Below, one piece after another: positions 2,876-33,534 of a stretch of 64,000 bases of DNA; the stretch's first letter is position 1, and each line of letters starts with the position of its first letter. Position numbers and translations under genes: made by a program. The notes below the pieces were generated by a model, which worked only from the letters and a program-made list of their open reading frames with translations, was not told the DNA's origin and searched no databases. This DNA comes from Eledone cirrhosa (lineage: Eukaryota): positions 181,474,001-181,538,000 of the forward strand of contig OZ024741.1 in NCBI GenBank assembly GCA_964016885.1, in the 5' to 3' direction.

Positions 2876-3006
<131 letters not shown>

Positions 3007-3032
3007 AAAGAATAGAGGTGTAACACACAAGT

Positions 3033-3419
3033 TATATATTGGTAAACGGAATAGAAAATGCTGACAAATTGTTCACAGTTGAAAAATGGTTTAATTAGGA
3101 ATAAAAGAGTATTAGTGATTGTATGGGTTAGTATTCAGTTGTGGTTTTAAGTTTTTAAGTTTTTACCGGTTGCGCATTTCTAAATGCTTTTCAAAAATAA
3201 TTTTGAGATAGAGTGTCCGTGCTGTTTGCTCACGGACACTCTATCTCAAAATTATTTTTGAAAAGCATTTAGAAATGCACAACCGGTAAAAACTTAAAAA
3301 CTTAAAACCACAACTGAATACTAACCCATACAATCACTAATACTCTTTTATTCCTAATTAAACCATTTTTCAACTGTGAACAATTTGTCAGCATTTTCTA
3401 TTCCGTTTACCAATATATA
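3033..3419. repeat. Long foldback inverted repeat (189-bp arms, 9-nt loop) ending in (TA)n
   Basis: 3033-3221 is the reverse complement of 3231-3419, with one mismatch seen (gcgca/gcaca). Confidence 0.95.
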
Positions 3420-5050
3420 TATATATATATATATATCTGTGTCTATGTGTACGTTTGTGCATCAATGTAAACGTTCAGTAAATGAATGTGTGTATATATA
3501 CGCGTGTGGATATATATGAATAGTCCAGGAAATAATGTGTGCATCCTTATGTGCATATATAGCTCAGTCTGTATACATGCACGTGAGTCTGTGTCTGAGT
3601 ATGTGTATGTATGAATGGACATATATGCATATGGTGATTCAGCTAATACGTGCTTCCAATATAAAAAAAACGAGCTGGAAACTGATGAAAATGAATCGTC
3701 TGCTCAGCAACGCCAGGGATAGTAAAGAAGTGCTAATCCATACTCGGTTGATAATTAAAACCAATTTCGCATCTCCAGCAAATGTGTGGTACAAACAAAA
3801 TAACAAGGTAACGTAGTTTGTAATATAATGAAATATGTGAACATATTGATGATGTGAGCATGTAAATGATGTAACGCCATCCATGAATCATTCTTCTTAA
3901 CATGAAGTAATGACTACAATTTTGTCCTTCAATGATCTCACTCTGACGACAGCATTGCATGATCTTTACAATATAGTTTTCAATTAGTAATACGTATGTA
4001 TGAACCCGTAACAGAGTCGCAAGGGGACTGTAGTGACATATATCATGTCTTAAGGACTTTAAATGGGAGAGATAAAGAGGAAGTGAGAAAGAGATGTTGA
4101 GGGATAATCGATTGAACTGAAGCTTTCTTATCGACCACGAAATGTAAAAAGGAAAAGTTATGGCTATTGATGTTCCGAGTTGAAATTCCGCTGCGATCAA
4201 CTTTACCTTTTCAGGGTCGATAAAATAAAATACCAGTCTAATACTAGACTAGATTTAACTAACTACCCCCACCATTTACTGGCCTTGTGTCTAATGTGGA
4301 AATCATTATGAGGAAATATATGAGTGATGAAGTTGTAGAATACGTATCACAACAAAGCGTATCAACGGCGGCGTGTTATGTTACTGTCCGTTCAGCTGGA
4401 AAAAATGAGTTGTACTTGTAATGCTAAGGACAATTTTGTCACACACTGAATCTACCGGAGAACTACGTTATTAGTAAACGTATAAATAAAAGCCTCAGTC
4501 ACTTGTACGTTAATTTCATGAGCAAGCCGTTTCGTTGGTCGTAGAACCGGAAAACTCATCGTCGTAACCGACAGAGACCCGATACATCACATTCTCAGTT
4601 CAATTTCCACCTAAATATTACTTATCCTTTCGTCCTTCCGCGCATTGCACCTAAACGTCTAGTCTCGGTGTCTATATTCGAAAATCTGTTTTATTTAAAA
4701 GTATACAGACACTAGCTTTACACAGCTCTGGTTTGTTTTGTTTAGAGTTAGAAAACGTAGTCATATTAGAAACTATCTCTATAGTTTGGCTGAAGCTGAT
4801 GGCTTGGGAAAAAATTTCGTTGACAACTGTAAATATAAAGATGATCTAAAAAAAATTATTGGTATCTCGAGTTTTCCTATGTGTTTTCTTCTTTCAAATT
4901 TAGTTTCGTTTTAAGCAGATCTTGTTTATACTTTTGCGCATTACTTCAAAACAATGCGACGCCAGATAAATATCCCTGACAGAAATATTATACGAAAGGA
5001 AAAAAAAAAGCAAACGAACTGAAACTACATAATATTTTCCACCATACACC

Positions 5051-5097
<47 letters not shown>

Positions 5098-5290
5098 TAA
5101 TTTAATATATCAACTAACATAAGCGCACAGATGCACGCCTATGCCAGCAAATACACAGGTTATGTCATAGTACCTAGGTGGTTCAATGCAGGAGGATGCA
5201 GAACAATAATATAAAAGACGTAAAATAAGAAAATCTCTTAAAAAAAAAATTTTTTTTTTTTTTAATTTTTACTTACTTACTTAAATTTTC

Positions 5291-5372
5291 ACTCCAACTA
5301 ATTAGTTTCCGCAATGGGATAAAGACAGTTACGTAATCTAACTGTCGAGAATTCATTGCGTCATCAGGGAGT
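5291..5372 (-). ncRNA. Type I hammerhead ribozyme, unit 1 (fully paired)
   Basis: Minus strand: ACUCC-CUGAUGA-CGCAAUG[...GACAGUUA gauuacg UAACUGUC...]CAUUGCG-GAAA-CUAAUUAG-UU-GGAGU; stem I 5 bp, stem II 7 bp plus an inner hairpin, palindromic stem III, GUU cleavage triplet. Confidence 0.88.
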
Positions 5373-5862
5373 CTATTCTCAGCTAAGTCTCCAGGCAATG
5401 CGCGGACACTGGCGGCTCATATAAAAATAATAATAATTCGGTAGATGGAACAGCTAGCGAGGACTGAATTCCATGCACTGAAATCCTCACTGCCTCTAGT
5501 CAAATGGCCGATTCTAAAGAATCAATCACGTGACACAGAGGCTAGTCAGAAGGAATGTGATGGTAAGATGACAGACGCCTACTAACACCCCCCCCCAAAA
5601 AATTTTTTTTAGAAGTGGTTTTGGCAGGTTTGCTCGACAAATCAGTGATTTGGAGATAAATATAGATAATTTAATATATCAACTAACATAAGCGCACAGA
5701 TGCACGCCTATGCCAGCAAATACACAGGTTATGTCATAGTACCTAGGTGGTTCAATGCAGGAGGATGCAGAACAATAATATAAAAGACGTAAAATAAGAA
5801 AATATCTTTAAAAAAAAAATTTTTTTTTTTTTTTTTTTTAATTTTTACTTACTTAAATTTTC

Positions 5863-5944
5863 ACTCCAACTAATTAGTTTCTGCAATGGGATAAAGACAG
5901 TTACGTAATCTAACTGTCGAGAATTCATTGCGTCATCAGGGAGT
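5863..5944 (-). ncRNA. Type I hammerhead ribozyme, unit 2
   Basis: Same as unit 1, but the core-proximal stem II pair is C.A (CAUUGCA-GAAA). Confidence 0.8.
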
Positions 5945-6432
5945 CTATTCTCAGCTAAGTCTCCAGGCAATGCGCGGACACTGGCGGCTCATATAAAAAT
6001 AATAATAATTCGGTAGATGGAACAGCTAGCGAGGACTGAATTCCATGCACTGAAATCCTCACTGCCTCTAGTCAAATGGCCGATTCTAAAGAATCAATCA
6101 CGTGACACAGAGGCTAGTCAGAAGGAATGGGATGGTAAGATGACAGACGCCTACTAACACCCCCCCCCCAAATTTTTTTTTTAGAAGTGGTTTTGGCAGG
6201 TTTGCTCGACAAATCAGTGATTTGGAGATAAATATAGATAATTTAATATATCAACTAACATAAGCGCACAGATGCACGCCTATGCCAGCAAATACACAGG
6301 TTATGTCATAGTACCTAGGTGGTTCAATGCAGGAGGATGCAGAACAATAATATAAAAGACGTAAAATAAGAAAATATCTTAAAAAAAAATATTTTTTTTT
6401 TTTTTTTTAAATTTTTACTTACTTAAATTTTC

Positions 6433-6514
6433 ACTCCAACTAATTAGTTTCTGCAATGGGATAAAGACAGTTACGTAATCTAACTGTCGAGAATTCATTG
6501 CGTCATCAGGGAGT
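6433..6514 (-). ncRNA. Type I hammerhead ribozyme, unit 3
   Basis: Same as unit 2. Confidence 0.8.
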
Positions 6515-7000
6515 CTATTCTCAGCTAAGTCTCCAGGCAATGCGCGGACACTGGCGGCTCATATAAAAATAATAATAATTCGGTAGATGGAACAGCTAGC
6601 GAGGACTGAATTCCATGCACTGAAATCCTCACTGCCTCTAGTCAAATGGCCGATTCTAAAGAATCAATCACGTGACACAGAGGCTAGTCAGAAGGAATGG
6701 GATGGTAAGATGACAGACGCCTACTAACACCCCCAAAAAAAAATTTTTTTTAGAAGTGGTTTTGGCAGGTTTGCTCGACAAATCAGTGATTTGGAGATAA
6801 ATATAGATAATTTAATATATCAACTAACATAAGCGCACAGATGCACGCCTATGCCAGCAAATACACAGGTTATGTCATAGTACCTAGGTGGTTCAATGCA
6901 GGAGGATGCAGAACAATAATATAAAAGACGTAAAATAAGAAAATATCTTAAAAAAAAATATTTTTTTTTTTTTTTTAAATTTTTACTTACTTAAATTTTC

Positions 7001-7082
7001 ACTCCAACTAATTAGTTTCTGCAATGGGATAAAGACAGTTACGTAATCTAACTGTCGAGAATTCATTGCGTCATCAGGGAGT
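7001..7082 (-). ncRNA. Type I hammerhead ribozyme, unit 4
   Basis: Same as unit 2. Confidence 0.8.
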
Positions 7083-7492
7083 CTATTCTCAGCTAAGTCT
7101 CCAGGCAATTCGCGGACACTGGCGGCTCATATAAAAATAATAATAATTCGGTAGATGGAACAGCTAGCGAGGACTGAATTCCATGCACTGAAATCCTCAC
7201 TGCCTCTAGTCAAATGGCCGATTCTAAAGAATCAATCACGTGACATAGAGGCTAGTCAGAAGGAATGGGATGGTAAGATGACAGACGCCTACTAACACCC
7301 CCCCCCAAATTTTTTTTTTAGAAGTGGTTTTGGCAGGTTTGCTCGACAAATCAGTGATTTGGAGATAAATATAGATAATTTAATATATCAACTAACATAA
7401 GCGCACAGATGCACGCCTATGCCAGCAAATATATATATATATATACCATGATATTAAATAAATGGAAACTATATTTATAAAACCATATTTAT

Positions 7493-7555
7493 TTTTATTA
7501 TATATATTTCAAGGGCAACCAAGCCAATCTTGGTGCGCTTTCATCAGATAAAATA
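7493..7555 (-). ncRNA. Minimal type I hammerhead (left arm)
   Basis: UUUUAU-CUGAUGA-AAG[..ACCAAG auugg CUUGGU..]CUU-GAAA-UAUAUA-UA-AUAAAA. Confidence 0.72.
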
Positions 7556-7689
7556 CAAAGTTTGTTTTATAAATAAAGACGTACCCATGAAGATTCAACC
7601 TTATCTGTCGGAAATTCACTGGATAAGGTTGAATTCACTGATAAGGTTGAATCATCATGGGTACGTCTTTATTTATAAAACAAACTTTG

Positions 7690-7754
7690 TATTTTATCTG
7701 ATGAAAGCGCACCAAGGTTGGCTTGGTTTCCCTTGAAATATATATAATAAAATA
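7690..7754 (+). ncRNA. Minimal type I hammerhead (right arm)
   Basis: UAUUUUAU-CUGAUGA-AAG[..ACCAAG guugg CUUGGU..]CUU-GAAA-UAUAUA-UA-AUAAAAUA; 8-bp stem I, palindromic stem III. Confidence 0.75.
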
Positions 7755-7902
7755 AATATGGTTTTATAAATATAGTTTCCATTTATTTAATATCATGGAA
7801 TATTTACTCCAGTAATTTGTTGAGTGCTCTATATCAGTTATAAACATTTATTTTTGTCGGAATTCCAACAAATTAAATACAACTTCTACATATATATATG
7901 TA

Positions 7903-7949
<47 letters not shown>

Positions 7950-8029
7950 TGTCCCCCCAAAATATATACACACTTTGATTACCTGTACAGGCAATATAAA
8001 TTAGAATGGTACATACATTTTTTGGGGAC

Positions 8030-8034
<5 letters not shown>
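7950..8034. mobile_element. Tiny Tc1/mariner-type MITE
   Basis: TIR remnants tgtcccc..aaaa / ttttggggacaccc within (TA)n; same family as 10613 and 11762. Confidence 0.6.
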
Positions 8035-8079
<45 letters not shown>

Positions 8080-9139
8080 AATAAATATATATGGTGCACA
8101 CACAATCACTAACACAAACACCTACTTACTGTGTAACACCTCCAACTCAAATACAAACCAAATACACGCAATACGCACATAGACATACGTATAGAGAAAC
8201 TCACACGTAAACATATACAAACATACACACATAACCGAGAAACCCACCACCCCCACATACGTGTACATTCTACTACTGACACACACAAACTACACACAAA
8301 CCGACAAGCACACAAACACACAGACTATATACGCACAATTTGATGGATACACTCATACAGGCAGACACCAAAAACAAAGGGCCCAAGTCACACGATGTAT
8401 CTCACCCCCGCACACACATATCACAACCGACTGAGCTGGAAACCCTATGACCACTGCTGAACCCTTTCCCACGCATCCCTACATAAAACCTATATGTCTG
8501 CCCACCTCACCCTTCGTGATAAACCCCTCTATCATTTTTTCTTTCTTTTCCCCCTTCCAAACTTCTTTCTCTCGCCTAATTTTACTATTGTTTAATAAAT
8601 GAAAGACTAAAATTAGGGGAGAGAAACTGATAATTCTTCCTAACTTTGCACCATTTGCGGAAATGGAAAGTTAATTAATTATATTAACATCAGTACTTAT
8701 CGATCACAGAAGATTGAAAGACGGGATTTAAACTCAGAACATAAAGGGCCATAACTTAATACTGCAAAGCATTTTGTCCGACGCTCTACCGATATTGTCA
8801 ATCATCCACCCTAAGCGTGAAACTAGCCTCGCGAGCTGGAATGGCCCTTTCAGCGCGTTCCCATACCATCCTCCAGAAAATTGCCATCTCCATTCTATCC
8901 GCCGGGGCCGCAGAACGACCAGCGCATGGGCTCCCATCTGCTTATAATAGTGAGAGATGGGGAGAATGGAAGAGACGGAGGCAGTGACAGTGGGAGTTGT
9001 GTTCTTTTGTGTTCGGACCTTGTGTATGTGTATATGTTTTACGGACTTCCTTCCTTAATAGTTCATCTCACCGTGTAATTTTCCCCCGTGTTTATCGTCA
9101 ATTTTTAAACCTTGAATAGTATATATATATATGATGGCT

Positions 9140-9680
9140 GCAAACTCACGCTAAGAGTATTGCAATCACTTGTCAGATTGACATGTGTGGCGTTCGGATA
9201 TGGCTTTCCAAGCCTTCTAGAGACTTACACTCCTTCGCACATTGACAGCAACTATGGATCTCCCTGGCCTCAGGTTTTGCATCAGGTTGCCTGTGAACCT
9301 TCACATTCCACTTCAGTCCTGTTAGAGATCGACATTCTTTGCCACATTCATTACATTTTTCAATACCGTGGTGATCATAGTTCACTGGTTGTCTTTGAAC
9401 ATAGCTGTGACTGTGGCTCCTGAGACCGGATTTTCTCAAGCACATCTTTTCACACTAAGGGTACGCCAATTCAATGGAGATACCGATCGTTTCAAGAGAT
9501 ACACCAAGGAATTGCTTACGCACATCCCGTTTGATCTTCACGTGCTCTAAGCGTTTGTCCTCAAAATTATGGACCCCATCATTCACCATTGCACGCCAAG
9601 TTTCTCTTTCAAGAGCTTTTATCTCCCAGTCAGCCACCATCAAACCAGTTTTATATGTAGGTATGTGCAATCGGGGGTAA
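9140..9680 (-). pseudogene. RTE-clade LINE 3' fragment with C-terminal C2H2-like zinc fingers
   Basis: WEIKALERETWRAMVNDGVHNFEDKRLEH..KRDVRK followed by CNECGKECRSLTGLKWNVKVH and CCQCAKECKSLEGLESHIRTPH; frameshifted. Confidence 0.65.
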
Positions 9681-9732
9681 CCACAGTAAGTAAGGTACTC
9701 AATAGTAGAGTATATAATGTTTGATATAAAAA

Positions 9733-9786
9733 TGGCTTCTACAGGACTAGAACTGTTTCATTCGAAGGAAATCATCAGTAAAGCCA
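9733..9786 (-). ncRNA. Candidate solo type I hammerhead (slightly degenerate)
   Basis: UGGCUUU(A)-CUGAUGA-U UUC cuuc GAA U-GAAA-CAG uucuaguc CUG-UA-GAAGCCA. Confidence 0.6.
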
Positions 9787-10612
9787 ACTGTCATTGTGAT
9801 ATTGGGATATTTATACGTTCTCTGATGGTAGGGAAAGGTCGTGATTAGGATGGGTAGAGGTCATTAGCCGAGGGATTTTAAGAACAGGGATTCTTTGAAA
9901 AAACTATATTTAGAGGAAAATACACAGTAATACAAAGAATGTAAGCATTCACACTAAGTACCCATAAACAAACATACACATACTGATTTATATATATATA
10001 TGTGTGTGTGTGTGTGTATGTGTATTGAGAGTAAGTGAGAGAGATAAATGCACACATCACGTATACCAAACTATTAGCACTAGCTAGACGTTATAAACTT
10101 AGTGAATAAATTTATGTATACTAAAAACACATGTATATCTATACATAAAATAAGTATTAATGTATTTTTCAAAATTAGATATAGAATTCGTTTGCTTAAT
10201 GTATCTTTTCCCGGTCGGTATAAATTTATCACACATTTTTGCATTGCTTTTGGTGGAAATGAAGCGGACGGAGTGTACGAAATGTCGAGTTTGTTGCAAA
10301 ATACTTAAATATTACATTTAATTTCCGCCTCATACCGCAATTCTCTAATTCGGTATATTTTCGACGTCTTCTGATAATGTCAGCCGCTAACAACGGTCTA
10401 TACTTTCTTCAATTTCTTTCCTAATACAAACAGCAGCAACAGTAATAATAACAATAATAATGACACCAACAATCGCACAAACAATTTTAAATGAACGATG
10501 TTTTCATCAACACCCCACTCTCCAGAGCGTGAAATTAATAAACATTCGTTGTACTGCCTCTCTGTTTTGTCCCTGTTCAAATTTTTCCATTATATATATA
10601 TATATATATATC

Positions 10613-10667
10613 TAGGGTGTCCCCCCAAAATCCTGTTGAAGTGTGTATACGTTTTTGGGACACCCTA
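10613..10667. mobile_element. Tiny Tc1/mariner-type MITE
   Basis: tagggtgtccc...gggacacccta TIRs in (TA)n. Confidence 0.65.
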
Positions 10668-11032
10668 TATATATATATATATATATACAAAACAAAAGGG
10701 CGTACTGGACAAAGATAACGGAAAAAACAGAATATCGGCGTTTCAGTGCATCAGGGTCAACACTTCCTGTGCACAATGGAACGATACAAAACGGGTAGAT
10801 ACCGGACGATTTGTGCTTTTCGGTAAATTACACACATCTATATACTACTAAAATTCTGTGATTGCTTGCTTGCTTGCTTGTCTGTAATGTAATACAACCA
10901 AAAGGGCGCATGATGGGAAAATACTTCGAAAGGAAGTTGAACCTGAAATGGGGATACAAATGGAATAAAATAAGTTTCGCGTAAATCAGAGAAAGGGTTC
11001 CCGAGATATATGGTTTTTCCGGGTATCTTCAT

Positions 11033-11104
<72 letters not shown>

Positions 11105-11761
11105 TGAGAGAGAAAGAAAGACAGATAGAGTGAAAGAGATAGTGGTTGTGAGAGAGTAGATGAAATAGAGACATAGAGAGAGGGAGAGGAGACATAGAAG
11201 GAGAATGGAAGAGAGAGGGGGATTGAAAGAGCTGGTGGTGTTGTGCGTGTGTATATATATATATATGTGTGTGAATGTGTGTGTATATATATAATATATA
11301 TATATGTGTGTGTGTGTCTATGACCAGTGCATATAGATTACAGACACCTACACATATATATATATATACACACACTTAAATATATATACACACACACATT
11401 TATATATATACATACACATACGTATATATATGGGCCTTCCGGTTTCATTTAACATTATATAAGTCTGTGTATATTCTAATTATTTAAAAATCATTTTTAA
11501 GTGAACATGATTTAAAAAAATATTTTGAAGTGAACGTGACCCAACGGGTCATGGGTGGTCTAGTAAAGACTAAATACAGAAAAAAGGCTACAAACTAAAG
11601 GAATGATGCACTGAAACTCTAGTGATTACCAGACGTTGACTGATGAGAAGGGACTCCGTTTTTCTGGTTTTTTTTTTCTTTTGTCTTTAGCCTGTACGCC
11701 CACCTGTTTTAGATTCATATAATCTTTCTTTGTCTGTACGTTAGACTGTGGTCCATATATA

Positions 11762-11840
11762 CAGGGTGTCCCTCCAAAATGTATACACATGTGTATTAAA
11801 ATGCTATTGAAGTATGTATACATATTTTGGGGACACCATG
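11762..11840. mobile_element. 79-bp Tc1/mariner-type MITE with TA target duplication
   Basis: TA-cagggtgtccctccaaaatgtatacaca ... tatgtatacatattttggggacaccatg-TA. Confidence 0.75.
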
Positions 11841-12113
11841 TATTTTCTAATTTTTTTTTATTTCTCTCCTTTGGCTACGCCAGTGCGCATTATTTCTATC
11901 TCTCTCTTCCTTGTCAGTTAATGCACTTTGGTTTGTAGTACTGTTTTTTCTTTTATCGTCTTTATTTGTGTAATTCCCCAAAAGGCACTAGTCTTGTGTC
12001 TACCTCTGTTATTTTGCCCTAATGTGCTTAGGAATGAATTGTATCAACGCAAATAGGGGAAATCGGTCAAAAGATTAACGTATACAATAGATATAGAATG
12101 ATAGAAATTGTAA

Positions 12114-15547: not shown

Positions 15548-15624
<77 letters not shown>
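15548..15624. repeat. (TATC)n / GATA microsatellite, 5' flank of Tx1-like copy 1
   Basis: Pure tetranucleotide repeat abutting the element. Confidence 0.95.
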
Positions 15625-15625
<1 letters not shown>

Positions 15626-15707
15626 CACCCCTTCCTGGGGTAAAATTTTCGTTTTGAAAAAAATTTCGCCGGTGAAAAAAAGTGTAAACAAACCTTGCAT
15701 TCAGTCA

Positions 15708-17574
15708 TGAACGCTGCGTTTATAACTAGAAGTGGTGGAGAGTCGGTAAGAGTGTTAAGCTCGCAGTCACCTCCTCTCACTACCTCATTGAAAGACATCG
15801 AAAATGTCGTCAGTTTTGAAAACACGATGTCGGACGTTGATTGTAACATCAACACTAACACAAACACCAATAACATGCAAAATATAAACAACACCAACCA
15901 GAACAACAACAACAACAACAATAATGACAACAAGAACAACAATGACAACAAGAACAACAACAGCAACAATGATAACAACAACACCACCACCAACAACAAC
16001 AGCAACACGAACAACTCGACGAACAAGGAAAAGATTTCTTTTGCTCAAACCGTCCAAAAGACGGAACTGTTCACATACCTTGACATTTCCAATGCTAGGG
16101 AAATGTTAAGCGATGCAAAACAGTACGTAACTTTTGGTGAGAGTGGTGCTTTCAGCATCACTTCTCCTCAACAGTTACGCAGAGAAACTGTTCTAAAAAC
16201 AGTAATTTTTAGGACGGTTTCAAATGTGTCGAAAAAACCAGTTCAGTTATCCAAAAACGATATTGAACTGGTTCTGAAGAATTCCATGAAGGATATTGCC
16301 TTCATCCAAAAAGGAAAACTTTTTGGAAGCATTTCGGTGTTGTTGAAAGACCAATTGACAGCACAAAAATATTCTGTATCGCCGATTGTGTCCCCCCTTT
16401 ACACCTTTTTCCCCACATATATGGGAAAAAGAACTCAAAAAATAAAAATTTTGAACATAGCACCAAATGTAAACATCTGGTGGATTCTAACTGGCTTCAT
16501 CGATTTCGACGAAGATACCATCATATCGGTGGGAAAGTCCTCCAGAGGCACATTCAATGGTACAAGCATGGAAGTTCTGGTCCAAATGAGGCCAGAACGG
16601 ATAGCTAAAATACCCCAACGTGTGCCTCTGGATGGAATTTCACACAAACATTTCTGTTGAGGGTAGGCGGCCTTCATGTTACCACTGTTTAAGCAGTGGT
16701 CACCTGAAGGCTTACTGTCCTCAGTTAACTAAAATAAAAAAAGAGGCACTACTACCAACACCCAAAACAACAACACAACCACCACCACCACCACAACAAC
16801 AACAACAACACGCAAACACAACCAAAACAAGAACAACAAACCTACCTGCAAGCACAGTCTCACCCAACCCCACTCCACCTAAAACCACTGCAAAAACACC
16901 CACAAACACAACAGCTCCCGAAAACATACCCTTCCAAATAACACAGACACCACAACGGACGAGGCGCCCACATCATCACCAAGTGATGAAAAGAAAGAAG
17001 AAAAGACACCACAAGAACAAAAAAACAACAAACATCACTACAAACATACAACCACCAACACAAACAACACAAACATTACAAACAAAACCCCCCCGTCCCG
17101 AAAACAAAACCACGACATCACTCCAAACACAAACACCTACAACAAAACGAAAGCTCCCACAAGAACAACAGATAAAAACCACCGCAACACAACAAGAACA
17201 TTACACACACATAAACAGTCAAAACAAAACTTTAATGGAGGTCATCTCCAACGACCCTTCGGTTTTCACCGAAGGGAAAACTTTTTCGAACTGTGTAGAC
17301 AAACCTAATTTAAAGATGATTAGGGTCCCTACGGACACCTATAAGTCTTTAAAGGAAAACTTTCCTAAGGACGTGGGTAATCCTTGTGTTAAACCCATTA
17401 ACCGCGTCCTTTTAAAAAGTTTCCCCACCCTCACCCCAGACACACCTACCCCAGACACCCCACCCCACCAAACATCTCCGTCCTCACCCCGCCGGAAACC
17501 ACCACCCACCCAGACAACTCCTCTAACACCCCCATGGACACATGCGGCCTGATCCCCGGGAGACGAAGAGGTGA
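15708..17574 (+). pseudogene. ORF1 (Asn-rich N-terminus, RRM-like region, zinc knuckle, Thr/Pro-rich linker), frameshifted
   Basis: CYHCLSSGHLKAYC; FFPTYMGKRT motif shared with the other copies; ends DPRETKR*. Confidence 0.8.
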
Positions 17575-17608
17575 GTGTTTTTTTCTCTTTTAACTTTTCA
17601 GAACCAAC

Positions 17609-20600
17609 ATGGTCAATATAAGAGTTGGGTGTGTAAATGTACGCGGCCTGGGGATGCCCTGGAAACAGGGCAAACTCTTAAACGACCTCAGGTCGCACAG
17701 TATGGATGTAGTAGCCATTTACGAGTCCAGGATCCACAGCGAGCGACAGCTGGCCCCCATCTACGCATCTCTCTGTCAGCCGAGGGGGTGGGTGCAGGCT
17801 TGCCGTTTTGCTGCGGAAACACCTGGGGCTCGTAACACAGACGGTACATATGGACCCGGAGGGTCGACTGGTGGTCCTAGACGTTGACGGTAGTGAAGGT
17901 GGAGCCTTCAGGCTGGTGGCCGCATATGCCCCATTCGGGACACCGCGGCCAGACTTCTTCAAACGTCTAGAGACTTTTCTGGGAACGTCCCGATCCTTGC
18001 TTTTAGTGGGGGACTGGAATGGATTCCTAGATGCACGTTGGGACTATGTGGGAGCATGTCCCGATAAAGGGGGTTGTAACATCCTCAAACAGTTAATCGG
18101 TCGATTTGACCTGGCCGATAGATATCGACTAGATTTTCCGACCTATGCCACTGTGGACGTGGAGTAATCGTAGCGGAACATCTAGATCGTATCTAGATAG
18201 GGTTCTAGTTAGAAATAATGATAGGGACATGTTAAGCTGTCCACAAATGTTCATGGTTGCTTATTCAGACCACAAACTTGATAGAACCTGCATGGTCAAA
18301 CTTGATAGAACCCAGAGACAAGGACCCGGCTACTGGAAGCTGAACTTGTCGTTACCGACATGCAAAGCCTACAGTAGACGGATTAGCACTTTAGTTAAAC
18401 AGCACTTGACAGGGGCCATTGTCAACAACAGATGGTGGTACTCTCTCAAGAGGGCACTTAGATTAGACTCGTTAGTTTTTAGTAAAGAATTAGCATTAGA
18501 TAGAAATAGAACCGAGAAAGAACTGGTAGATAAAGTAGAAGAGGCAATTAAAAGTGGCAACGTAGCCAGCGTGCTAGCAACGAGAACGGCCTTGGACCAG
18601 TTCTTCGACGCAAAGCATGAGGGCTGCGTTGTCAGAAGCAAAATACGTGCTCTGGGAAACGAGGGAGCCAAAGCTGTTAGCTGGGCCAGAGTGACGGAGG
18701 CAAAAAGTCCACGATTCAGTCTTTGAAGGACCAAAACGGACGCGTGATACGTGAGCCGAAGCAGATGTGTGCGGCCTTTCAGCGGCATTTTGCTCAGCTG
18801 TTCGGGCAGGGCGGCGCGCCGGGAGAGGCTATGGATTTCGGTCCATACCTCGACGGCCTACTGCCACTCTCGGACAGCGAGACAAAGTTCTGCGAAAAGC
18901 CGATTTCAGCCGCTGAGATAGGGGTCGCGTTGAGCCAATGCGGCAAATGCAAATCTCCAGGTCTCGACGGTCTACCCTACGAATTTTACGTAGCAATGCC
19001 CGACTTATTATCCGGTTTCCTGGAAGCGGTCTACTGCAACTGGCAATAGAACGGGAGAATTCCCATTTCCGTGACCAGGGGCGTAGTCACACTAGTCAGG
19101 AAGGACGAGAATAAGGGGGATGACATAGGAAACTTCCGGCCCATAACTCTGCTAAACACAGAGTTACAGATTTTGGCCAAGGTGTTGGGAAAGAGGCTGG
19201 CGCTTGTCGTCGGGAACCTGGTGGGAGAAGCGCAGACATGTGCAATCCCGACCAGGTCAATACACGACAACCTCCACCTCATGCGATACATCGTAGAGAG
19301 GGTAGGGTGTAAACCCGGCTTCGGTGGGGCCCTGATCAACTTGGATCAGTCTAAGGCTTTCGATAGGGTTGAACATCGTTACCTGGATGCGGTGCTCGAG
19401 GCGGCAGGCTTCGGACCCGTGTTCAGGGGCTGGATTGCTGCAATGCATAACAGCAACATCTGCACAAGGGTTAAGGTGAACGGCTACCTCTCGGAGCCCT
19501 TCCATATCGCGCGATCCATTCGACAGGATGCACTCTCTCCTACCTTCTGTACGTATTGACTCTCGAGCCACTACTGCGGAAGTTGGAGCTATTGCAGGGC
19601 ATCCCTCTGGAACCGGGACTGCGGAAAGCGGCGTCGGCCTACGCCGACGACGTGACAGTAATGGTGTCGAGAGCCTCGCAAATCGAGGAAGTCGGCACCT
19701 TACTGAAGGAATACGAAAGGTTCACAGGAGCGAAGCTGAACCGGGACAAGTCCATCGGTTTGCAACTCGGATCGTGGAGAGGCAGACCGATGCCTTCCGA
19801 TGGCGTCGTCGGACGCTGGACGGAAGGACCAGTAAAGCTGCTCGGGGTCTGGTTTGGTCCGGACCTCCAGGTGGAGAAGAACTGGAACGAGGTGTCGGCC
19901 AAGGTGTTTGCACTCACCCAGAAGTGGGCCGACTGCAAACTATCCTTGAAAGGTCGAGCGGAGGTGGCGAACACTTTTATAGCGTCCGCCATCTACTACT
20001 GCTTGACCGTCGTGCCTTGTCCAGCCAAAACGCTCGCCAAAATGGAGCGCGCGCTCTTCCAATTCCTTTGGAAGAGGCGGGCTTCTATGGTGAGAAGATC
20101 CGTCTGCTGCCAACGCCCTGGGTAAAGCAAGACCGGGTAAAGCAGTCCTGGGTAAAGCAAAGACCGAGGAAAATGGGCGACTGGCACATCGAATGTGCTC
20201 AGGCGCTCACAGCCCTCTGGCAGGCGGACCCGGCAATCAGTGGAGACTCCACTTCGTCATTCTATAGAGGGTTGTCCGCAACAAGTGCGACGACGTGCTC
20301 GGTGAAACTCTCGGCGTAGAGGAAGACGAACTGGCCAGTCTGTTCGGTAGGACCTTCCGCCCGGGACCGATGGACAACTTCCAAAAGTCCCTGGCCTGGC
20401 AGTGCTACCGAGGAGCTCTACCAGTTCGAGACAATCTCTACAGACATGGGCGCCCGGGCAGGGACCCTGCAAAAAAGATCTGTCCAAGGTGCGTGCGAGA
20501 CGAAGTAATCATCGCGCACGCATTCATACATTGCCCGGGCGTCACCGACCTGTGGGGCTATGTAGAATGACTATTGTCGCGGGTGAGCCCAATCCGGTTG

Positions 20601-20951
20601 ACCACGGAGTCCATTGTCATGATCAAACCGCCACCCTCCTTCAGAAACGAAGGAGAGGCGGTTTTCCTTTGTGTGATAGCTATGGCGAAAGAGGTTGTGT
20701 GGTGGACAAGGTTGAAAGGGCTGAGATCAGACACCTTTCTCTCCGGCCAACAACTGATTCTTTTTTTCAAATACCATTTTGGAAGAAGAATCAGGATGGA
20801 GAGAGAGGTGCTGTACCCAAGCAAGTTTTATGAAAGGTGGGTGAAAGTGGCGAGAATGGCCCGAGTGAATGGGCCTTCTCTCTGTATCAGCCTGTGGGTT
20901 GAGGAAAAGGAGGAGGAGAGGAAAGGAGTACAAACTCTTCGTACTCCTTGA
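17609..20951 (+). pseudogene. ORF2 (APE endonuclease + reverse transcriptase), multiple frameshifts
   Basis: NVRGL, GDWN, YLDR, SDHK (APE); SPGLDGLP, FRPITLLN, LDQSKAFDRV, AYADD (RT). Confidence 0.9.
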
Positions 20952-21130
20952 GATGAGGGCTGCACATTTTTTCGGGGGTATGTGTTACCCATATGAACTG
21001 TCTCCCCCTATTGGGGAAAATCGACTAATTTTAAATTGCATTTGTGATAATATTTTACACGTTTTTATTATATGTAAACTCCCCCTTTTATTTGCCCCTT
21101 CTTTTGGTCACTGTGGCTAATAATGAAACA

Positions 21131-21214
<84 letters not shown>

Positions 21215-21434
21215 CTACGATGGACACATGTGCTGAGCTCGCTCGGTAAGTTTCGTTTAAATTTATCTGGAAATTGTGAACTGTAAACTTTCATTTTCGT
21301 ACCATTTTGTAGAGGGACTGCCAGGTCAAATTTTGATCTGGTCAGTCTCTCAAAATATTCTACGCCTTTAGGCGAAATAGTGTTGTAAACATTTTATCTT
21401 TCGAAAAATTTCGAAAAATCCTATTTTGAGAAAA

Positions 21435-23271
21435 ATGGCTGAAGCATCTTCACCAACAGTCAAAGGAAGAAAAGGGAAATCATACTCACAGCTTCCCCCT
21501 GCCACTGTCACAGCAGCAGATTCCAAAGGCAGAGGTCAGCCAGAGGAAGAATTTTCGTCACCTGTTGACCGACAACTTGATGTAGCCACAACTATACAAG
21601 AAACTGAAAACAACAACAACAACGACAACAACAGCAACAATAAAGACAACAAAAACAACAACAACACAAACGTCACAAGTATCCACACACCAAACGAGAA
21701 AGACAACAACAACAAAGATGAAAACAACTCAAACGACGAGAAACAAAACAATACAAACACCAACAACGAAAACAAAATATCTTTTGCACAAACGGCTAAA
21801 TTATCAGTCACTTATGTGCTTGAAGATATTTCAAAAGCCAAAGAAATGCTGGAAAAAGCCAAAAAATATGTATCTTTTGGCGAAAGCAGTTCGTTTTCTA
21901 TAAATTCACCTCCAGAACTAAAAAAACAGACGGAATTACGAACTGTCGTATTCCGTACAATTTTAAATAAAACAAAAAAACCAGCACAACCATCTCAAGC
22001 TGAAATTCAGTTAGTACTGAAAGAAGCGATGAAAGACATCACTTTCATACAAAAGGATAAAGTCTATGGGAGTTTATCCATATTGATGAAAGACGAATTG
22101 GCGGCGAAAAAATACTCTGTGTCGCCAATTCGTTCCACACACTACACCTTCTTCCCCACCTACATCGATAAAAAAACCCCAGAGAATATGGATAAGCAAT
22201 ATCACCCCAAACATAAACTACTCGTGGTTACTAACCGGTTTCCTCAATTTAGACGAGGACAACCTCATTTCAATAGGGAAGGCATCCGGCGACGCGTTCA
22301 GTGGAACGAGTATCGAAGTTCTGACACAAATAAGGCCAGAACGTATCGCCCAAATCCTTGAGCGCGTCATGCTGGATGACCGTACCCACCTCAACATTAT
22401 TGTGGAGGGTAGGCGTCCCTCCTGTTACCTCTGTGGCAATAGATGTCACCCGAGGGCTGCCTGTCCCCAGCCCGCACAGAAAAAAAACACTGCTTCCAAC
22501 ACCAACACCACCCCAACAACAACAACAAAACAACAACACCAAAAACCAACAACACCACCACCACCACCACCACCACCACCACCACAACAACAAAAAACAC
22601 GTGAAAAAACAACACAGAATACTGTCCCACCCAACCCCTCCCCACCCAAAACAAATACAAAAACACACACACCGCAAACACTACCAGAAAACATACCCCT
22701 CCCACCCAACAAGGAAGACGAACCCCTTTCGTCGCAAGACGAAAAAGATCCCTTCCAAACAGTAAAAAGAAAGAAGAGGAGGCGCACCACAGACACACTT
22801 GTTAACTTTAACCCTCCCCAAGAGAACACAAACTATATACAAACCACCCCTCCTCGTCACACAACACTAACTGCTACACAAAAAAAGACTTTACAATATA
22901 CATACATGAACACAGACAACAAAGAACTACTGAAAACAATTTCATCAAACCCTTCGGTCCAAACTGAAGAGCCTAACTTTATAACTGCTGTGGGACTACC
23001 TCATTTAAAAATGATTAAAGTCCCAATGAACTTTTATAAAACACTGAAAATAGATTTCACGGAGGACGTGGGCCCCCCCCTGCGCCAAACCAATCAACCG
23101 CGTCCTCCTAAAAAGTCCCCACCCCACCCAGACATCCACTCAACCACAAACACCCCAACCTCACAACACACTGATGCCCCTTCACTTCCACAAACCACCA
23201 CCCCACCCAACAACCCATCCCCAACCAGCATGGAAATTGAGCGGCCCGCTTCCCGGGACGCAGAGAGGTAG
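21435..23271 (+). pseudogene. ORF1, frameshifted near 22175
   Basis: MAEASSPT..., Asn-rich tract, CYLCGNRCHPRAAC knuckle. Confidence 0.8.
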
Positions 23272-23295
23272 GTGCCTTTTCTCCTTACCACCAAC

Positions 23296-26200
23296 ATGGC
23301 TGTGCTAAGAATAGGGTGTCTAAATGCGCGTGGCCTGGGCTCATCTTGGAAGCAAGCAATGCTTCTAAATGACCTCAGGTCACGATCTATAAATGTGATG
23401 GTTATCTGCGAGGCCCGGATCAGCAGCATGCGACAGCTAGCCTCCACCTTTGACGACTTTGAGATGCACGCATCTCTCTGTCAGCCCGGAGGTGGGGGTG
23501 GGGTTGTCGTTCTGCTGCAAAAACATCTGGGTCTTGCCACACAGATAGTTCACTTGGACCCAGGGGGTCGACTGGTGGTGCTGGACCTTGGCAGTGGCGA
23601 AGGTGGAGCCTTTAGGCTGGTAGCCGCATATGCCCCTTTTGGGACAGAGCGGCTCGAATATTTCCAGCGTCTGGAGTCTTTTCTAGGGACGTCCCGTTCC
23701 CTGCTTTTAGTGGGGGACTAGAATGGTATCCTGAATGCACGTTGGGACTATGCAGGGGCATGTCCCGATAGAGAGCGGTGCAACAGCCTCAAGGGGTTAC
23801 TCGGCCGATTTGACCTGACCGATAGATTTCGATTAGATTTTCCGACGCTGCCAACCTGGTCTTGGTCAAATCGCAGCGGATCATCTAGGTCGTACCTAGA
23901 TAGGTTTTTAGTTAGAAATAAGGACAGGGACTTTTTAAGTTGTCCAGTAATGCTCATGGTTGGCTATTCAGACCACAAGTTGGTGACCTGCATGGTCAAC
24001 CTTGATAGAACGCATAGACAGGGCCCCGGTTACTGGAAGCTCAACTTGTCCTTGCCGGCAAGTAGAGCTTACAGGGATCGGATTAGTACGTTAGTTAAGG
24101 AACGGTTGACTGGAGCGATCGTCAACAGCAGGTGGTGGGTATCTCTAAAGAGAGAGATTAGAGTAGTTTCGATAGAATTTAGTAAGGTTCTAGCTGCGGA
24201 TAGGAATAGCAAGGAAAGGGAGCTAATAGATAGAGTAGAAGAGACAATTAGAAGCGGCGACGTGGCCAGAGTGCTAGCGTCGAGAACGGCTTTGAGCCAG
24301 TTTTTCGACGCGAAGCACGAAGGCTGCGTTGTCCGAAGTAAAATACGTGCTCTAGGGAACGAGGGGACCAAAGCTGTTGGCTGGGCCCGCGTGACAGAGG
24401 CCAACAGTGGAACTAAATCCACCATCCGGTCTTTGCGAGACCAGGATGGACGGGCGATTCTTGAGCCTAAGCAGATGTGTGAGGCCTTTCAAAGGCACTT
24501 TGCCCGACTGTTCGTAGGGGGCGGGGAGCCGGTTGGGGATGTGGACTTCGGTCCATACCTCGACGGCCTGCCGCGTCTCTCGGACAGGGAGGCGAAGTCC
24601 TGCGAGGAGCCGATTTCGGCCGCTGAGATAGAGGACGTGCTGAGCCAATGCGGCAAACGCAAATCCCCGGGTCTCGATGGTCTTCCATACGAATTATATC
24701 TAGCTATGCCGGACTTGTTCCCCGATCTCCTCGAGGCGGTCTACTGCAACTGGCAACAGAACGGGAGAATTCCCTGTACTGTGACCAAGGGCGTATTCAC
24801 GTTTGTGAGGAAGGACGAGAACAAGGGGGACGAAATAAGTAACTTCATGCCCATAACTCTGCTAAATACAGAGTTACAGATTTTGGCCAAGGTGCTAGCA
24901 AAGAGGTTGGCGCTTGTCGTGGGCAACCTGGTGGGAGATGCGCAGACACGTGCTATCCCGTCCAGGTCCATCCATGACAACCTCCACCTCATGCGATACA
25001 TCATAGAGAGGGTTGGGAACGAACCCGGCTTTGGTGGGGCTCTGATCAACTTGGATCAATCTAAGGCACTCGATAGGGTTGACCATGGTTACCTGGATGC
25101 GGTGCTAGAGGCGGCAGGCTTCGGACCCGTTTTCAGGGGCTGGATCACTGCTATGCACAGCAGCCGCATCTGCTCTAGGGTCAAGGTGAACGGCTACCTC
25201 TCGGAGCCGTTCAAAATTGCTCGGTCCATCCGACAAGGGTGCCCTCTCTCCTCCCTTCTCTATGTGTTGACTCTCGAGCCACTACTGCGGAAGTTGGAGT
25301 TGTTGCAGGGCATCCCTTTGGAACTGGGATTGCGGAAAGCGGTGTCGGCCTACGCCGATGACGTGACCGTAATGGTGTCGACGGCCTCCGAAATCGGGAC
25401 GGTCGGCACCTTACTGGAGGAGTACGAAAGGTTCACAGGGGCTAAGCTGAACCGGGACAAGTCGATCGGTTTGCAACTCTGCACGTGGAGGAGCAGACCG
25501 ATGCCCTCCGATGGCGTCGTCGGACGCTGGACGGAGGGGCCGGTGAAGTTGCTCGGGGTCTGGTTCGGACCAGACCTCCAGGTGGAGAAGAACTGGGCGG
25601 AGGTTACGAACAGGGTGTTTGCACTGACCCAGAAGTGGGCCAGTTGCAAACTATCCCTGAAAGGTCGGGCGGAGGTGGTGAACACCTATATAGCGTCCGT
25701 CATCTACTACCGCCTGACCGTAGTGCCTTGTCCAAGAGAAACCCTCGCCAAGATGGAGCGCGCGCTCTTCCAATTCCTTTGGAAGAGGCGGGCTCCCTTA
25801 GTGAGGAGATCCATCTGCTGTCAACACCCTTCGAAAGGAGGGCTGGGGATGCCGTGGCTAATGATGCGTAAACACGCATTAAGGCTATGGCACCTCCACG
25901 TATTCCTCACCGGTCAACCGGTGTGGGCCTCGTTTGTGAGACGAACCTTTCCCAGACTCGTCTCACTCACCGAGCTGCAATCCTGGGTCAAGCAAAGACC
26001 GAGAAATCTGGGCGCCTGGCACACTGAGTGTGCCCAGGCGCTCACCACCCTCTGGCAGGCGGATCCGGTTATCAGTGGAGACTCCACCGCAACATTCTAT
26101 AGAGGGCTGGTACGCAGCAGGTGCGACGACGCCATTGGAGAAGCCCTAGGCATGGAGGAAGACGAACTGGCCAACCTGTTCGGTAGGACATTCAGCCCGG

Positions 26201-26731
26201 GACCCATGGATAACTTCCAGAGGTCCCTGGCCTGGCAGTGCTACCGAGGGGCTCTACCCGTTCGAGAAAGGCTCTACAGACACGGGCGCCCGGGTAGGGA
26301 CCCGCCAAAAAGATCTGTCCCAGATGCGTGTGCAACGAGGAAACCGTTGCACACGCATTGGTACACTGCTCGGGCGTAGCCGATCTGTGGGGCTATGTCG
26401 AACAACTGCTGTCAAGGGTGGGACCGATCCGGTTGACCACCGAGTCTATTGTAATGATCAAGCCGCCTCCCCCTTCAAAGATGAAGGAGAGGCGGTGTTT
26501 CTGTGCGTAATAGCCATGGTGAAAGAAGTTGTATGGTGGACGCGTCTAAAAGGACTGAGGTCAGGCACCTTTCTCTCTGGCCAACAACTGGTCCGTTTCT
26601 TCCGATATCATTTCGGAAGAAGGATCAGGATGGAGAGAGAGGTGCTCCACCCCAGTCGTTTTTATGAAAGGTGGGTGAAAGTGGCGAGAATGGCTCGTGT
26701 GAATGGGCCTTCTATTTACATAAGCCTGTAG
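23296..26731 (+). pseudogene. ORF2 APE + RT; premature stop at ~23719, frameshifts near the 3' end; 809-aa open segment
   Basis: NARGL, SDHK, RQGCPLS, AYADD, GGLG motifs. Confidence 0.92.
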
Positions 26732-27000
26732 GTGGAAAAGAGGAAGGAACGAGGGAGCACCCCCTCTCTGTGCTCCTGAGGAGAAGGGTTGCACACTTTT
26801 TCGGGGGGGGGGGGGGGTGCGAGCCCCCAAGGCGCCTCCTCTCTATTGAGGATTTTGTTATAAATTTTATTTTTTGTTATATTTTATTTTATTTTTATAT
26901 TTTGTTCTTGCCTCCTCCTTATTGAGGACGCCTTGTTTTGTAAACTCCCCCCATTGTACTTGTCCCACTTTTGATGCCCTGGTGGCAAATAAAAGAAACA

Positions 27001-27046
<46 letters not shown>

Positions 27047-27047
27047 A

Positions 27048-27094
<47 letters not shown>

Positions 27095-27095
27095 A

Positions 27096-27162
<67 letters not shown>

Positions 27163-29823
27163 GTGTAGAAGAGGCAATTAGAAGCGGTGACGTGGCCAGA
27201 GTGCTAGCGTCGAGAACGGCCCTGGGCCAGTTCTTCGACGCGAAACACGAAGGCTGCATCGTCCCAAGCAAAATACGTGCTCTGGACCAAAGCTGTTAGC
27301 TCGGCCCGCGTGATGCGAGGCTTTTCAAAAGCACTTTGCCGGATTGTTCGGAAGGGGCGGGGGGCCGGTTGGGGACGTGGACTTCGGTCCATACCTCGAC
27401 GGCCTGCCGCGTCTCTCGGACAGGGAGGCGAAGTCCTGCGAGGAGCCGATTTCAGCCGCTGAGATAGAGGACGTGCTGAGTCAATGCGGCAAACGCAAAT
27501 CCCCGGGTCTCGATGGTCTTCCATACGAACTATATCTAGCTATGCCGGACTTGTTCCCCGATCTCTTCGAGGCGGTCTACTACAACTGGCAACAGAACGG
27601 GAGAATTCCCTGTGCTGTGACCAATGGCGTAGTCACGCTAGTGAGGAAGGACTAGAACAAGGGGACGATATAAATAATTTCAGGCCCATAACTCTGCTAA
27701 ATACAGAGTTACAGATTTTGGCCAAGGTGCTAGCAAAGAGGTTGGCGCTTGTCGTGGGCAACCTGGTGGGAGATGCGCAGACATGTGCTATCCCGTCCAG
27801 GTCCATCCACGATAACCTTCACCTCATGCGATACATCATAGAGAGGGTTGGGAACGAACCCGGCTTTGGTGGGGCCCTGATCAACTTGGATCAATCTAAG
27901 GCATTCGATAGGGTCGACCATGGTTACCTGGATGCGGTGCTAGCGGCGGCAGGCTTCGGACCCGTTTTCAGGGGCTGGATCAATGCCATGCACAGCAGCC
28001 GCATCTGCTCTAGGGTCAAGGTGAACGGCTACCTCTCGGAGCCGTTCGAAATCGCGCGGTCCATCCGACAGGGGTGCCCTCTCTCCTCCCTTCTGTATGT
28101 AATGACTCTAGAGCCACTGCTGCGGAAGTTGGAGTTGTTGCAGGGCATCCCGTTGGAACCGGGATTGCGGAAAGCGGTGTCAGCCTACGCCGATGACGTA
28201 ACAGTAATGGTGTCGACGGCCTCGGAAATCGGGGCGATCGGCACCTTACTGGAGGAGTACGAAAGGTTTACAGGGGCTAAGCTGAACCGGGACAAGTCGA
28301 TCGGTCTGCAACTCGGCACATGGAGGGGCAGATCGATGGTGTCGTCGGGCGCTGGACGGAGGACCCGGTGAAGTTGCTCGGGGTCTGGTTCGGACCATAC
28401 CTCCAGGTGGAGAAGAACTGGGGTGATGTGACGAACAGGGTGTTTGCACTGACCCAGAAGTGGGCCGAGTGCAAACTGTCCCTGAAAGGTCGGGCGGAGG
28501 TGGCGAACACTTATATAGCGTCCGTCATCTACTACCGCCTGACCGTTGGCGCCTTGCCCAAGGGCAACGCTCGCCAAAATGGAGCGCGCACTCTTCCAAT
28601 TCCTTTGGAAGAAGCGGGCTCCTATGGTGAGGAGATCCATCTGCTGTCAACACCTTTCGAAAGGAGGGCTGGGGATGCCGTGGCTAATGATACGTAAACA
28701 CGCATTAAGGCTACGGCACCTTCAGGTATTCCTCTCCGGTCAACCGGTGTGGGCCCCGTTTGTGAGACGAGCCTTTCCCAGACTCGTCTCACTCACCGAG
28801 CTGCAATCCTGGGTCAAGCAAAGACCGAGAAAACTGGGCGCCTGGCACACCGAGTGTGCCCAGGCACTCACGGCTCTCTTGCAGGTGGACCCGGCTGTCA
28901 GTGGAGAATCCACCTCGTCATTCTATAGAGGGCTGGTGGTTAGCAGGTGCGACGACGCCCTCGGAGATGCCCTAGGCATGGAGGAAGACGAACTGGCCAA
29001 CCTGTTCGGTAGGACATTCAGCCCGGGATCCATGGATAACTTCCACAGGTCCCTGGCCTGGCAATGCTACAGAAGGGCTCTGCCCGTTCGAGAAAGGCTC
29101 TACAGACACGGGTGCCCGGGTAGGGACCCATCGAAAAAGATCTGTCCCAGATGCGTGTGCGACGAGGAAACCGTTGCACACGCACTGGTACACTGCTCGG
29201 GCATTGCCGATCTGTGGGGCTATGTCGAACAACTGCTGTCAAGGGTGGGACCGATCCGGTTGACAACCGAGTCTATTGTAACGATCAAGCCGCCTCCCCT
29301 CTTCAAAAACGATGGAGAGGCGGTGTTTCTGTGCGTAATAGCCATGGCGAAAGAGGTTGTATGGTGGACGCGTCTGAAAGGACTGAGGTCAGACACCTTT
29401 CTCTCTGGCCAACAACTGGTCCGTTTCTTCCGATATCATTTCGGAATAAGGATCAGGATGGAGAGAGAGGTGCTGCACCCCAGCCGTTTCTATGAAACAT
29501 GGGTGAAAGTGGCGAGAATGGCCCGTGTGAATGGGTCTTCACTCTACATCAGACTATAGGTGAGGAAGATGAAAGACCAAGGGAGCACCCCTTCTCTGTG
29601 CTCCTGAGGAGAAGGGTTGCACACTTTTTTCGGGGGTGTGTGCGACCCCCCAAGGCGCCTCCTCACTATTGAGGACTTTGTTATAAATTTTATTTTTTGT
29701 TATATTTTATTTTATTTTTATATTTTGTTATTGCCTCCTCCTTATTGAGGACGCCTTGTTTTGTAAACTCCCCCCATTGTACTTGTCCCACTTTTGATGC
29801 CCTGGTGGCAAATAAAAGAAACA
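27163..29823 (+). mobile_element. Tx1/L1-clade retrotransposon, copy 3 (5'-truncated, same subfamily as copy 2)
   Basis: Starts mid-ORF2 directly after (TATC)n; RT motifs; 3' UTR nearly identical to copy 2; followed by TATC(TC)n. Confidence 0.92.
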
Positions 29824-29885
<62 letters not shown>

Positions 29886-32800: not shown

Positions 32801-33534
32801 CTGATCAATTTAGATCAGTCTAAGGAATTTGATAGGGTCGACCATCATACTTGGCAGCGGTTCTACAAGGCGTCCGGCTTCGGTCCAGTCTTCAGAGGCT
32901 GGATCTCTGCCATGCACACCAGCATCTGCTCGGCAGTCAAGGTGAATGGTTACCTATCGGATCCATTCCAAATCATGCGTTCCATCCGTCAGGGATGCCC
33001 CCTCTCCTCCATTCTGTATGTACTGACTCTCGAGCCGTTACTGCGGAAATTGGAGCTGTTGCAGGGCATCCCGATCGAACAAGGACTGCGGAAAGCGGCG
33101 TCAGCCTATGCCTACGACATAACCGTAATGGTGTCGAAAACCTCGGAAATCGGGGTAATCGGCAACCTATTACAGGAATACGAAACGTTGACAGGAGCAA
33201 GACTAAACCCAAACAAGTCTGTCGGTTTGCAACTCGGCACATGGAGAGGCAAACCCATGCCTTCCGACAGTGTCGTTGGACGCTGGACGGAAGGACCAGT
33301 GAAATTGCTCGGGGTCTGGTTTGGGTCTCGGGATCTGGTGTTGAGTGTTGTTCTATCCAAGGGGTGTAAAACAACTCTGCAGTAACGTTCACCCATATTG
33401 GGAATTTGTTATTTTATTATATATAGTTTATTGTTATTTATTAATGTTAAAGTTATATGATTTTTATGTAAAGCCCCGCCGTCACGTCTTGTAATGTCCC
33501 ACTTTTGTACGCCCCTGTGGCTAAGAAAGAAAGA
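29886..33534 (+). mobile_element. Tx1/L1-clade retrotransposon, copy 4 (5' UTR truncated, two internal ORF2 deletions)
   Basis: ORF1 29899-31733 (CFKCGKKTHLKAFC); ORF2 from 31774 with deletions at ~32420 and ~33325; 3' end tgtggctaagaaagaaaga + tatctatgtatctatc. Confidence 0.9.

Follow-up and report, generated by a model that had tools for sequence, protein, structure and literature searches.

Inserted Penelope-like elements (PLEs) usually show head-to-head inverted pLTRs, palindromes at the junction and a one-sided tail (PMC3846280; bioRxiv 2021.04.23.441226). In the Adineta vaga Penelope elements treated in PMC3846280, inverted arms of ~180–220 bp meet in a junction palindrome or overlap and are followed on one side by a 31-bp tail; the pLTR pairs flank an ORF or cargo and often have target duplications of 8–10 bp. 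In PMC11167929, an anole PLE protein was purified that cleaves both strands of AT-rich DNA and extends them, with two internal reverse transcriptase (RT) starts defining the tail. The tables of PMC8557442 list (TA)n as the target of 26 of 27 Hydra-clade families (counted by eye), an octopus family included. This clade is described there by RWK, DKT and CxCX5C protein motifs and no CCHH, and for one of its members, Penelope-13_HM, the tables give an inverted 5′ copy and a hammerhead on each strand. The cephalopod Naiads of the same paper also target (TA)n, without canonical hammerheads.

Among the 56 hammerhead motifs published in PMC4209133, G10.1-C11.1 is the consensus at more than 80%. A10.1-U11.1 occurs in three (counted by eye from extracted text), including those of shrimp and Drosophila willistoni PLEs, in which A17 and a palindromic helix III occur as well. 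The same source reports opposite-strand hammerhead pairs 100–700 bp apart in Schistosoma. Type I hammerheads are likewise found in non-LTR retrozymes, described as short, ORF-less and low in GC, arranged as head-to-tail tandems and proposed to be mobilized by PLEs (PMC7229834; bioRxiv 2026.07.22.740005).

Here we describe a foldback in a 64-kb stretch of Eledone cirrhosa DNA (the window) that carries a hammerhead motif on each strand and lies beside a retrozyme-like array. It resembles the Hydra-clade EN+ PLEs Penelope-13_HM and Hydra-1_Obim in its (TA)n target and its hammerhead near the 3′ end, and the former also in the inverted 5′-truncated copy that places a hammerhead on both strands; unlike them, it has no ORF (PMC8557442). 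It shares the head-to-head arms and the junction of the A. vaga elements as described above, and probably a one-sided tail, here 91 nt long, but has neither ORF or cargo nor a visible target duplication. With the retrozymes it has in common its small size, low GC, type I hammerhead and a proposed PLE-driven mobility, whereas its head-to-head arrangement cannot release a monomer circle. Judging from its sequence features, we consider it quite probable that the foldback is a heavily 5′-truncated, inverted PLE insertion, which came to lie beside the array through shared (TA)n targeting.

Structure of the foldback

Self-comparison and alignment of the arms delimited the palindrome (Table 1). The predicted arms of ~160 bp were borne out, and they differ at four sites, three substitutions (7516/7729, 7528/7717 and 7591/7654) and one indel (7492). 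Three of the four fall inside the ribozyme, where two weaken stems, and none in its core; four differences are too few for a test of selection on the ribozyme. In the junction, 16 nt are unique, the next 13 nt repeat the start of the arm and 5 nt follow; the region contains an 18-bp tandem duplication (7613–7652, 2.2 copies). We looked for a continuation of the palindrome on the far side of the array and found none, nor was a second copy of the foldback sequence found elsewhere in the window. The predicted cut lies 52 nt from the end of the arm and ~142 nt from the end of the tail.

Table 1. Coordinates of the foldback, its surroundings and the further foldbacks in the window.
Feature	Position	Strand	Details
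Tandem array, non-LTR retrozyme-like	5091–7431	−	4 units of 568–572 bp plus 63 bp
(TA)8 tract, probably the target and the left-arm primer	7430–7445		Separates foldback from array; from sequence
Left arm, PLE-type 3′ end	7446–7605	− (outward, leftward)	160 bp; self-comparison, arm alignment
Type I hammerhead motif, left copy	7493–7553	−	Core 7547; GAAA 7510–7507; predicted cut after 7499
Head-to-head junction (spacer)	7606–7639		34 bp; sequence, tandem-repeat detection
Right arm, PLE-type 3′ end	7640–7798	+ (outward, rightward)	159 bp; self-comparison, arm alignment
Type I hammerhead motif, right copy	7690–7754	+	Core 7698; GAAA 7735–7738; predicted cut after 7746
Probable one-sided tail	7799–7889	+	91 nt; same position as comparator extensions; could be host flank
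Compound TA/TG microsatellite, right-hand border of the insertion	7890–7949		Sequence, tandem-repeat detection
Foldback A	3033–3419 (with flanks 3003–3435)		189-bp arms, 1 difference; one-sided tail; TA tracts both sides
Foldback C	43396–43720 (with flanks 43383–43799)		145-bp arms, 3 differences; ~59-nt tail; TA tracts both sides
Foldback D	43810–43973 (with flanks 43800–44121)		75-bp arms, 5 differences; ~60-nt tail

Hammerhead motifs on both strands

Both motifs read outward from the centre of the palindrome and, at the level of motif, contain the conserved core (CUGANGA, GAAA and UH) with stems I–III. The AAG/CUU stem II, its ACCAAG/CUUGGU extension, the AU-palindromic stem III and the AUA triplet were present as the original prediction had described them. 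The 8-bp AU stem I claimed for each arm was found in the right copy, which has lost one G-C pair of the stem II extension, but not in the left copy, where the extension is intact and an extra A shortens stem I to 6 bp. Stem III consists of 3 bp plus a loop, within an 8-nt AU palindrome, which makes the motif a “palindromic helix III” variant instead of the minimal type I hammerhead first proposed.

With the PLE variants of small palindromic helix III in PMC4209133 the motif shares a type I core and an expected activity as a dimer; it differs from the variants described there in its 8-bp all-AU stem I, its long interrupted stem II and the absence of G10.1-C11.1. The base of its stem II is A-U, a departure from the consensus that is also seen at 10.1-11.1 in Hydra-1_oBim (PMC8557442). 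Like the Hydra-clade hammerheads tabulated in that paper, it has U before GAA (18 of 26 rows, counted by eye), A17 (often in Hydra; 12 of 26, likewise by eye) and a near-palindromic stem III. In all 26 Hydra rows stem III starts with AC and spans 9–10 nt, whereas that of the foldback starts with AU and spans 8 nt. Three exact arm motifs of 12–14 nt are absent from the supplement of PMC8557442. A head-to-head layout with hammerheads is already known in print; the hammerhead family of the foldback is unmatched to the listed ones.

To score the motif we used a descriptor consisting of the core, stem II, a palindromic stem III, UH and stem I, which in the window matched the two foldback copies and one array copy. 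The prediction of a hammerhead on each strand holds, as dinucleotide shuffling of one arm, 280,211 times, gave no match. Five loose matches occurred in 1,348 shuffled windows, none of them combining a stem I of at least 6 bp with a palindrome of at least 6 nt. As the two foldback motifs are copies of each other, they count as one event, not two. The check by covariance model (cmsearch) was negative, as Rfam models do not score the foldback hammerheads: the whole window gave 0 matches at the gathering threshold, and the 28 weak matches at 4900–8100 in E-value mode include no hammerhead family. The presence of hammerheads on both strands, which was overstated earlier, is not remarkable, since it is the automatic outcome of any inverted duplication; here it would result from insertion of the element into a TA repeat as a back-to-back pair.

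Predicted folding

Read-through RNA is predicted to form a hairpin of 166–168 pairs (−240 to −245 kcal/mol), in which stem I has a probability of ~1e-53 to 1e-56. Such a hairpin had been expected to compete with ribozyme folding. The effect is seen in the model and exceeds mere competition, as folding is abolished. In read-through RNA the antisense arm would always be transcribed first, whichever the direction, leaving the ribozyme locked in the long duplex. A transcript would have to start in the junction for the ribozyme to fold, and even this would yield no more than a weak dimer held by the AU palindrome. In the monomer, stem III has a predicted probability of at most 0.001. The dimer-ready fold is predicted to lie 0.4–1.3 kcal/mol above the best fold of the whole arm, and the AU-palindrome duplex is predicted at −3.2 kcal/mol, against −9.0 for the palindrome of the array. 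These values for the monomer and the dimer suggest that the foldback holds at best a weak dimer ribozyme. Dimeric hammerheads in PLEs were reportedly described by Lunse in 2017. The rod-like fold of a single arm is within the range of shuffles (42 and 11 of 200). A putative action of ADAR or Dicer on the hairpin is probably incidental, and nothing points to a selected function.

Tail, TA tracts and three further foldbacks

Self-comparison of the window revealed three further foldbacks, A, C and D (Table 1), the one at 7446–7798 being B. The four are mutually unrelated in sequence, and all share one layout: a (TA)n tract, head-to-head arms, a one-sided tail and another (TA)n tract. At one end the TA tract is reached with a gap of −1, 1, 0 and 11 bases in A, B, C and D, respectively (in B between the left arm and the (TA)8 tract), while 1.9% of window positions are within 12 bp of a TA-tract edge. 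On the other side a unique extension of 36, 91, 59 and 60 bases precedes the tract, and a tract begins no more than 95 bp to the right of 5.6% of window positions. C and D are not fully independent, as they share the TA tract between them. A fifth self-inverted stretch (45337–45737) consists only of TG/CA microsatellite and is not counted among them.

The span 7446–7798 given in the original prediction is right for the palindrome. As the three other foldbacks carry one-sided extensions in the same position, the element itself probably extends through the 91-nt tail to ~7889, although the tail could instead be host flank. It is longer than the 30–40 bp of PLE tails in print, is unique within the window and forms no significant hairpin (39 of 200 shuffles did as well). 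At the untailed end of B the TA run matches the start of the tail at 4 of 5 nt; in A, C and D the corresponding matches are 7, 4 and 2 nt. No target-site duplication is visible, the flanks differing at every boundary tried. Junction and tail resemble each other over 12 nt, which we attribute to chance (313 of 5,000 shuffles; 31 of 705 windows).

An exact 11-mer is common to the tails of B and D (7821–7831 and 43993–44003), in the same orientation and nowhere else in the window. This was equalled in 7 of 3,000 shuffles, a post hoc figure for one of six possible tail pairs, and the 11-mer could be a cis signal for the protein of the element.

Foldback D contains a decayed, outward-reading hammerhead-like motif (cores at 43905 on the plus and 43878 on the minus strand), damaged differently in each arm and not scored by the descriptor. 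At the base of stem II it shows the same U-U step as motifs in the Hydra-clade tables. In A and C no hammerhead was detected, and cephalopod Naiads are a possible source of these two. A is probably the youngest of the four. C and D lie side by side across one TA tract and illustrate, as an internal control, how insertions can stack independently.

The neighbouring retrozyme-like array

The units of the array run head to tail, as in retrozymes, whereas the foldback is an inverted pair. Each full unit has one hammerhead motif with a 10-nt palindromic stem III of the Hydra type (4 bp), and the base of its stem II is C-A in three of the four copies and C-G in one. The sequence is unrelated to that of the foldback, as originally claimed for the hammerheads: the similarity of the foldback to the array unit is within chance, with 24 of 300 shuffles scoring as well. 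The length of the array fits copying of more than unit length.

Between the arms we counted 3 substitutions in 318 bp, as compared to 5 in ~2,100 bp of the array outside homopolymer runs. The point estimate thus makes the arms ~4 times more diverged than the array units, with equal age not rejected (P = 0.076), and suggests that the array is younger than the foldback. Most likely the array inserted separately, and probably later, into the same TA tract.

Search for a parent element and other features of the window

The foldback locus has no RT/GIY-YIG ORF, as is expected of a 5′-truncated copy. None of 134 window ORFs (132 of the 160 listed plus 2 from a LINE cluster that was otherwise left out) matched GIY-YIG, and neither a parent element nor a further copy was found in the 64-kb window. 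A 92-aa open frame across the palindrome had no Pfam match and no protein relatives, and the GIY-YIG-like look of its middle was dropped on these grounds. A two-pattern scan of prokaryote genomes (0 and 0) and blastn against plasmids and phages gave no match; these are not the relevant collections for this element. A sigma-70 promoter scan, irrelevant to animal DNA, was at chance level.

Other repeats are present in the window. A short repeat, lying between TA runs and having inverted ends, is dispersed over three sites (7950–8033, 10608–10672 and 11757–11843) and resembles a Tc1/mariner-type MITE. A decayed 3′ end bearing zinc fingers (9120–9760, minus strand; weak Pfam matches) finishes at a TA run and looks like the end of an RTE-type LINE. 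Related LINE copies with ORF1-like and RT ORFs cluster at 15600–33400 and 49300–54990, pairs of them being 64–92% identical; several end in (TATC)n and are apparently stacked head to tail. At 60616–63999, on the minus strand, an open RT frame of 1,128 aa with relatives of up to 70% identity runs off the end of the window. The 120 RT matches listed include two labelled with an organism, a shrimp, at 56–58% identity.

Discussion

A type I hammerhead motif on the sense strand of the 3′ terminal region and an inverted, 5′-truncated head-to-head copy are the PLE features found at this locus. Together, the probable one-sided tail, the three comparators and the Hydra-clade tables support two proposals of the original prediction, namely that a second hammerhead family used the same (TA)n site and that the foldback is an inverted PLE end, the parent PLE that it had envisaged not being found. 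Points that speak against a PLE origin are, besides the missing parent and second copy, the length of the tail, the lack of a visible target duplication, the AU start of stem III, the A-U pair at the base of stem II and the failure to detect hammerheads in A and C. By the style of its ribozyme and its target the element appears Hydra-like; the preference for (TA)n is present but not diagnostic, as it is shared by the cephalopod Naiads.

The array and the foldback might also stem from one compound PLE insertion. A PLE RT primed at the left (TA)n would have copied a retrozyme circle 4.1 times and jumped to its own pLTR RNA, so that the inverted pair caps the insert and the array occupies the place of the ORF in a canonical PLE. 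On the minus strand the inverted arm comes first, followed by the direct arm and the array, as in the PLE layout with a 5′ inverted copy (bioRxiv 2021.04.23.441226), and PLEs carrying foreign cargo between pLTRs are described in PMC3846280. The spacer between foldback and array is only 14–16 bp, the array hammerhead has the Hydra-type 4-bp stem III, and the substitution counts are compatible with equal age. We nevertheless find such an event unlikely. The spacer is pure (TA)8 and resembles target DNA, foldback and array share no sequence, and by point estimate the arms are the more diverged. No part of the foldback is missing if the array is disregarded, and three of three comparators are likewise complete; C and D adjoin each other in this manner too, and the orientations would agree by chance half the time. 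We found no description of a retrozyme-foldback compound junction in the available text of the literature on retrozymes and inverted Penelope elements.

That a solo hammerhead repeat (a retrozyme monomer or an old PLE end) was later duplicated in inverted form by template switching during host replication or repair appears quite improbable. Such an origin fits the short, messy junction with its 18-bp duplication and would make the unique right flank original sequence, but leaves unexplained why two-sided TA tracts and a one-sided extension recur in four of four unrelated foldbacks and why the motifs point outward in both B and D. The long hairpin predicted for read-through RNA, together with the antisense small RNAs reported for rotifer Penelope families (PMC3846280), could suggest that the locus has been retained for a regulatory role, as a hairpin or as a ribozyme switch, a putative substrate of ADAR or Dicer by which the family or the array would be silenced. 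We consider this very doubtful, since the hairpin and the array have no sequence in common, so that the one could not silence the other, since of the four arm differences three lie in the ribozyme and two weaken its stems, and since a hairpin is a by-product of every such foldback. A foldback DNA transposon (MITE) with a chance motif in its terminal repeats would also show a short spacer between long inverted arms, and chimeric foldback reads are a known artefact, which might have entered the assembly. To these two we give hardly any credence: there is no target duplication, the hammerhead motif is far beyond chance, the arms differ at four sites, and the asymmetric tail between TA tracts recurs.

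For a truncated, inverted PLE insertion we propose the following course. The GIY-YIG nuclease of the element would have cut a (TA)n tract, and the two TA ends would each have primed reverse transcription on element RNA, one at an internal AU-rich site (the arm end) and the other ~90 nt further 3′ (the tail end). Both cDNAs may have ended after ~160–270 nt; a short slip as their 5′ ends were joined would have given the 18-bp duplication. As the ORF was never copied, the insert would be dead, and the ribozyme would be baggage from the parent element. Priming from both ends is our inference; self-priming on an antisense template, the Arkhipova model as given in PMC3846280, is an alternative. If the tail is real, two primings fit better, as a single cDNA snapping back would copy the TA primer and not an RNA-derived tail. 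Twin priming of the LINE type was rejected, as it inverts without duplicating.

Read in this manner, the foldback is an ordinary fossil of PLE integration with modest value as a marker. A compound event, if true, would be a physical footprint linking a non-LTR retrozyme to PLE machinery, a link so far argued in the literature from co-occurrence and sequence kinship. If array and foldback did arrive together, the enzyme that moves animal retrozymes would become a directly testable question. Four ORF-less foldbacks of one layout in 64 kb suggest that such PLE ends are common in the genome, where they are easily mislabelled as MITEs. As the outer ends of each foldback map two priming sites, a genome-wide census could test the model of integration on both strands from two start sites.
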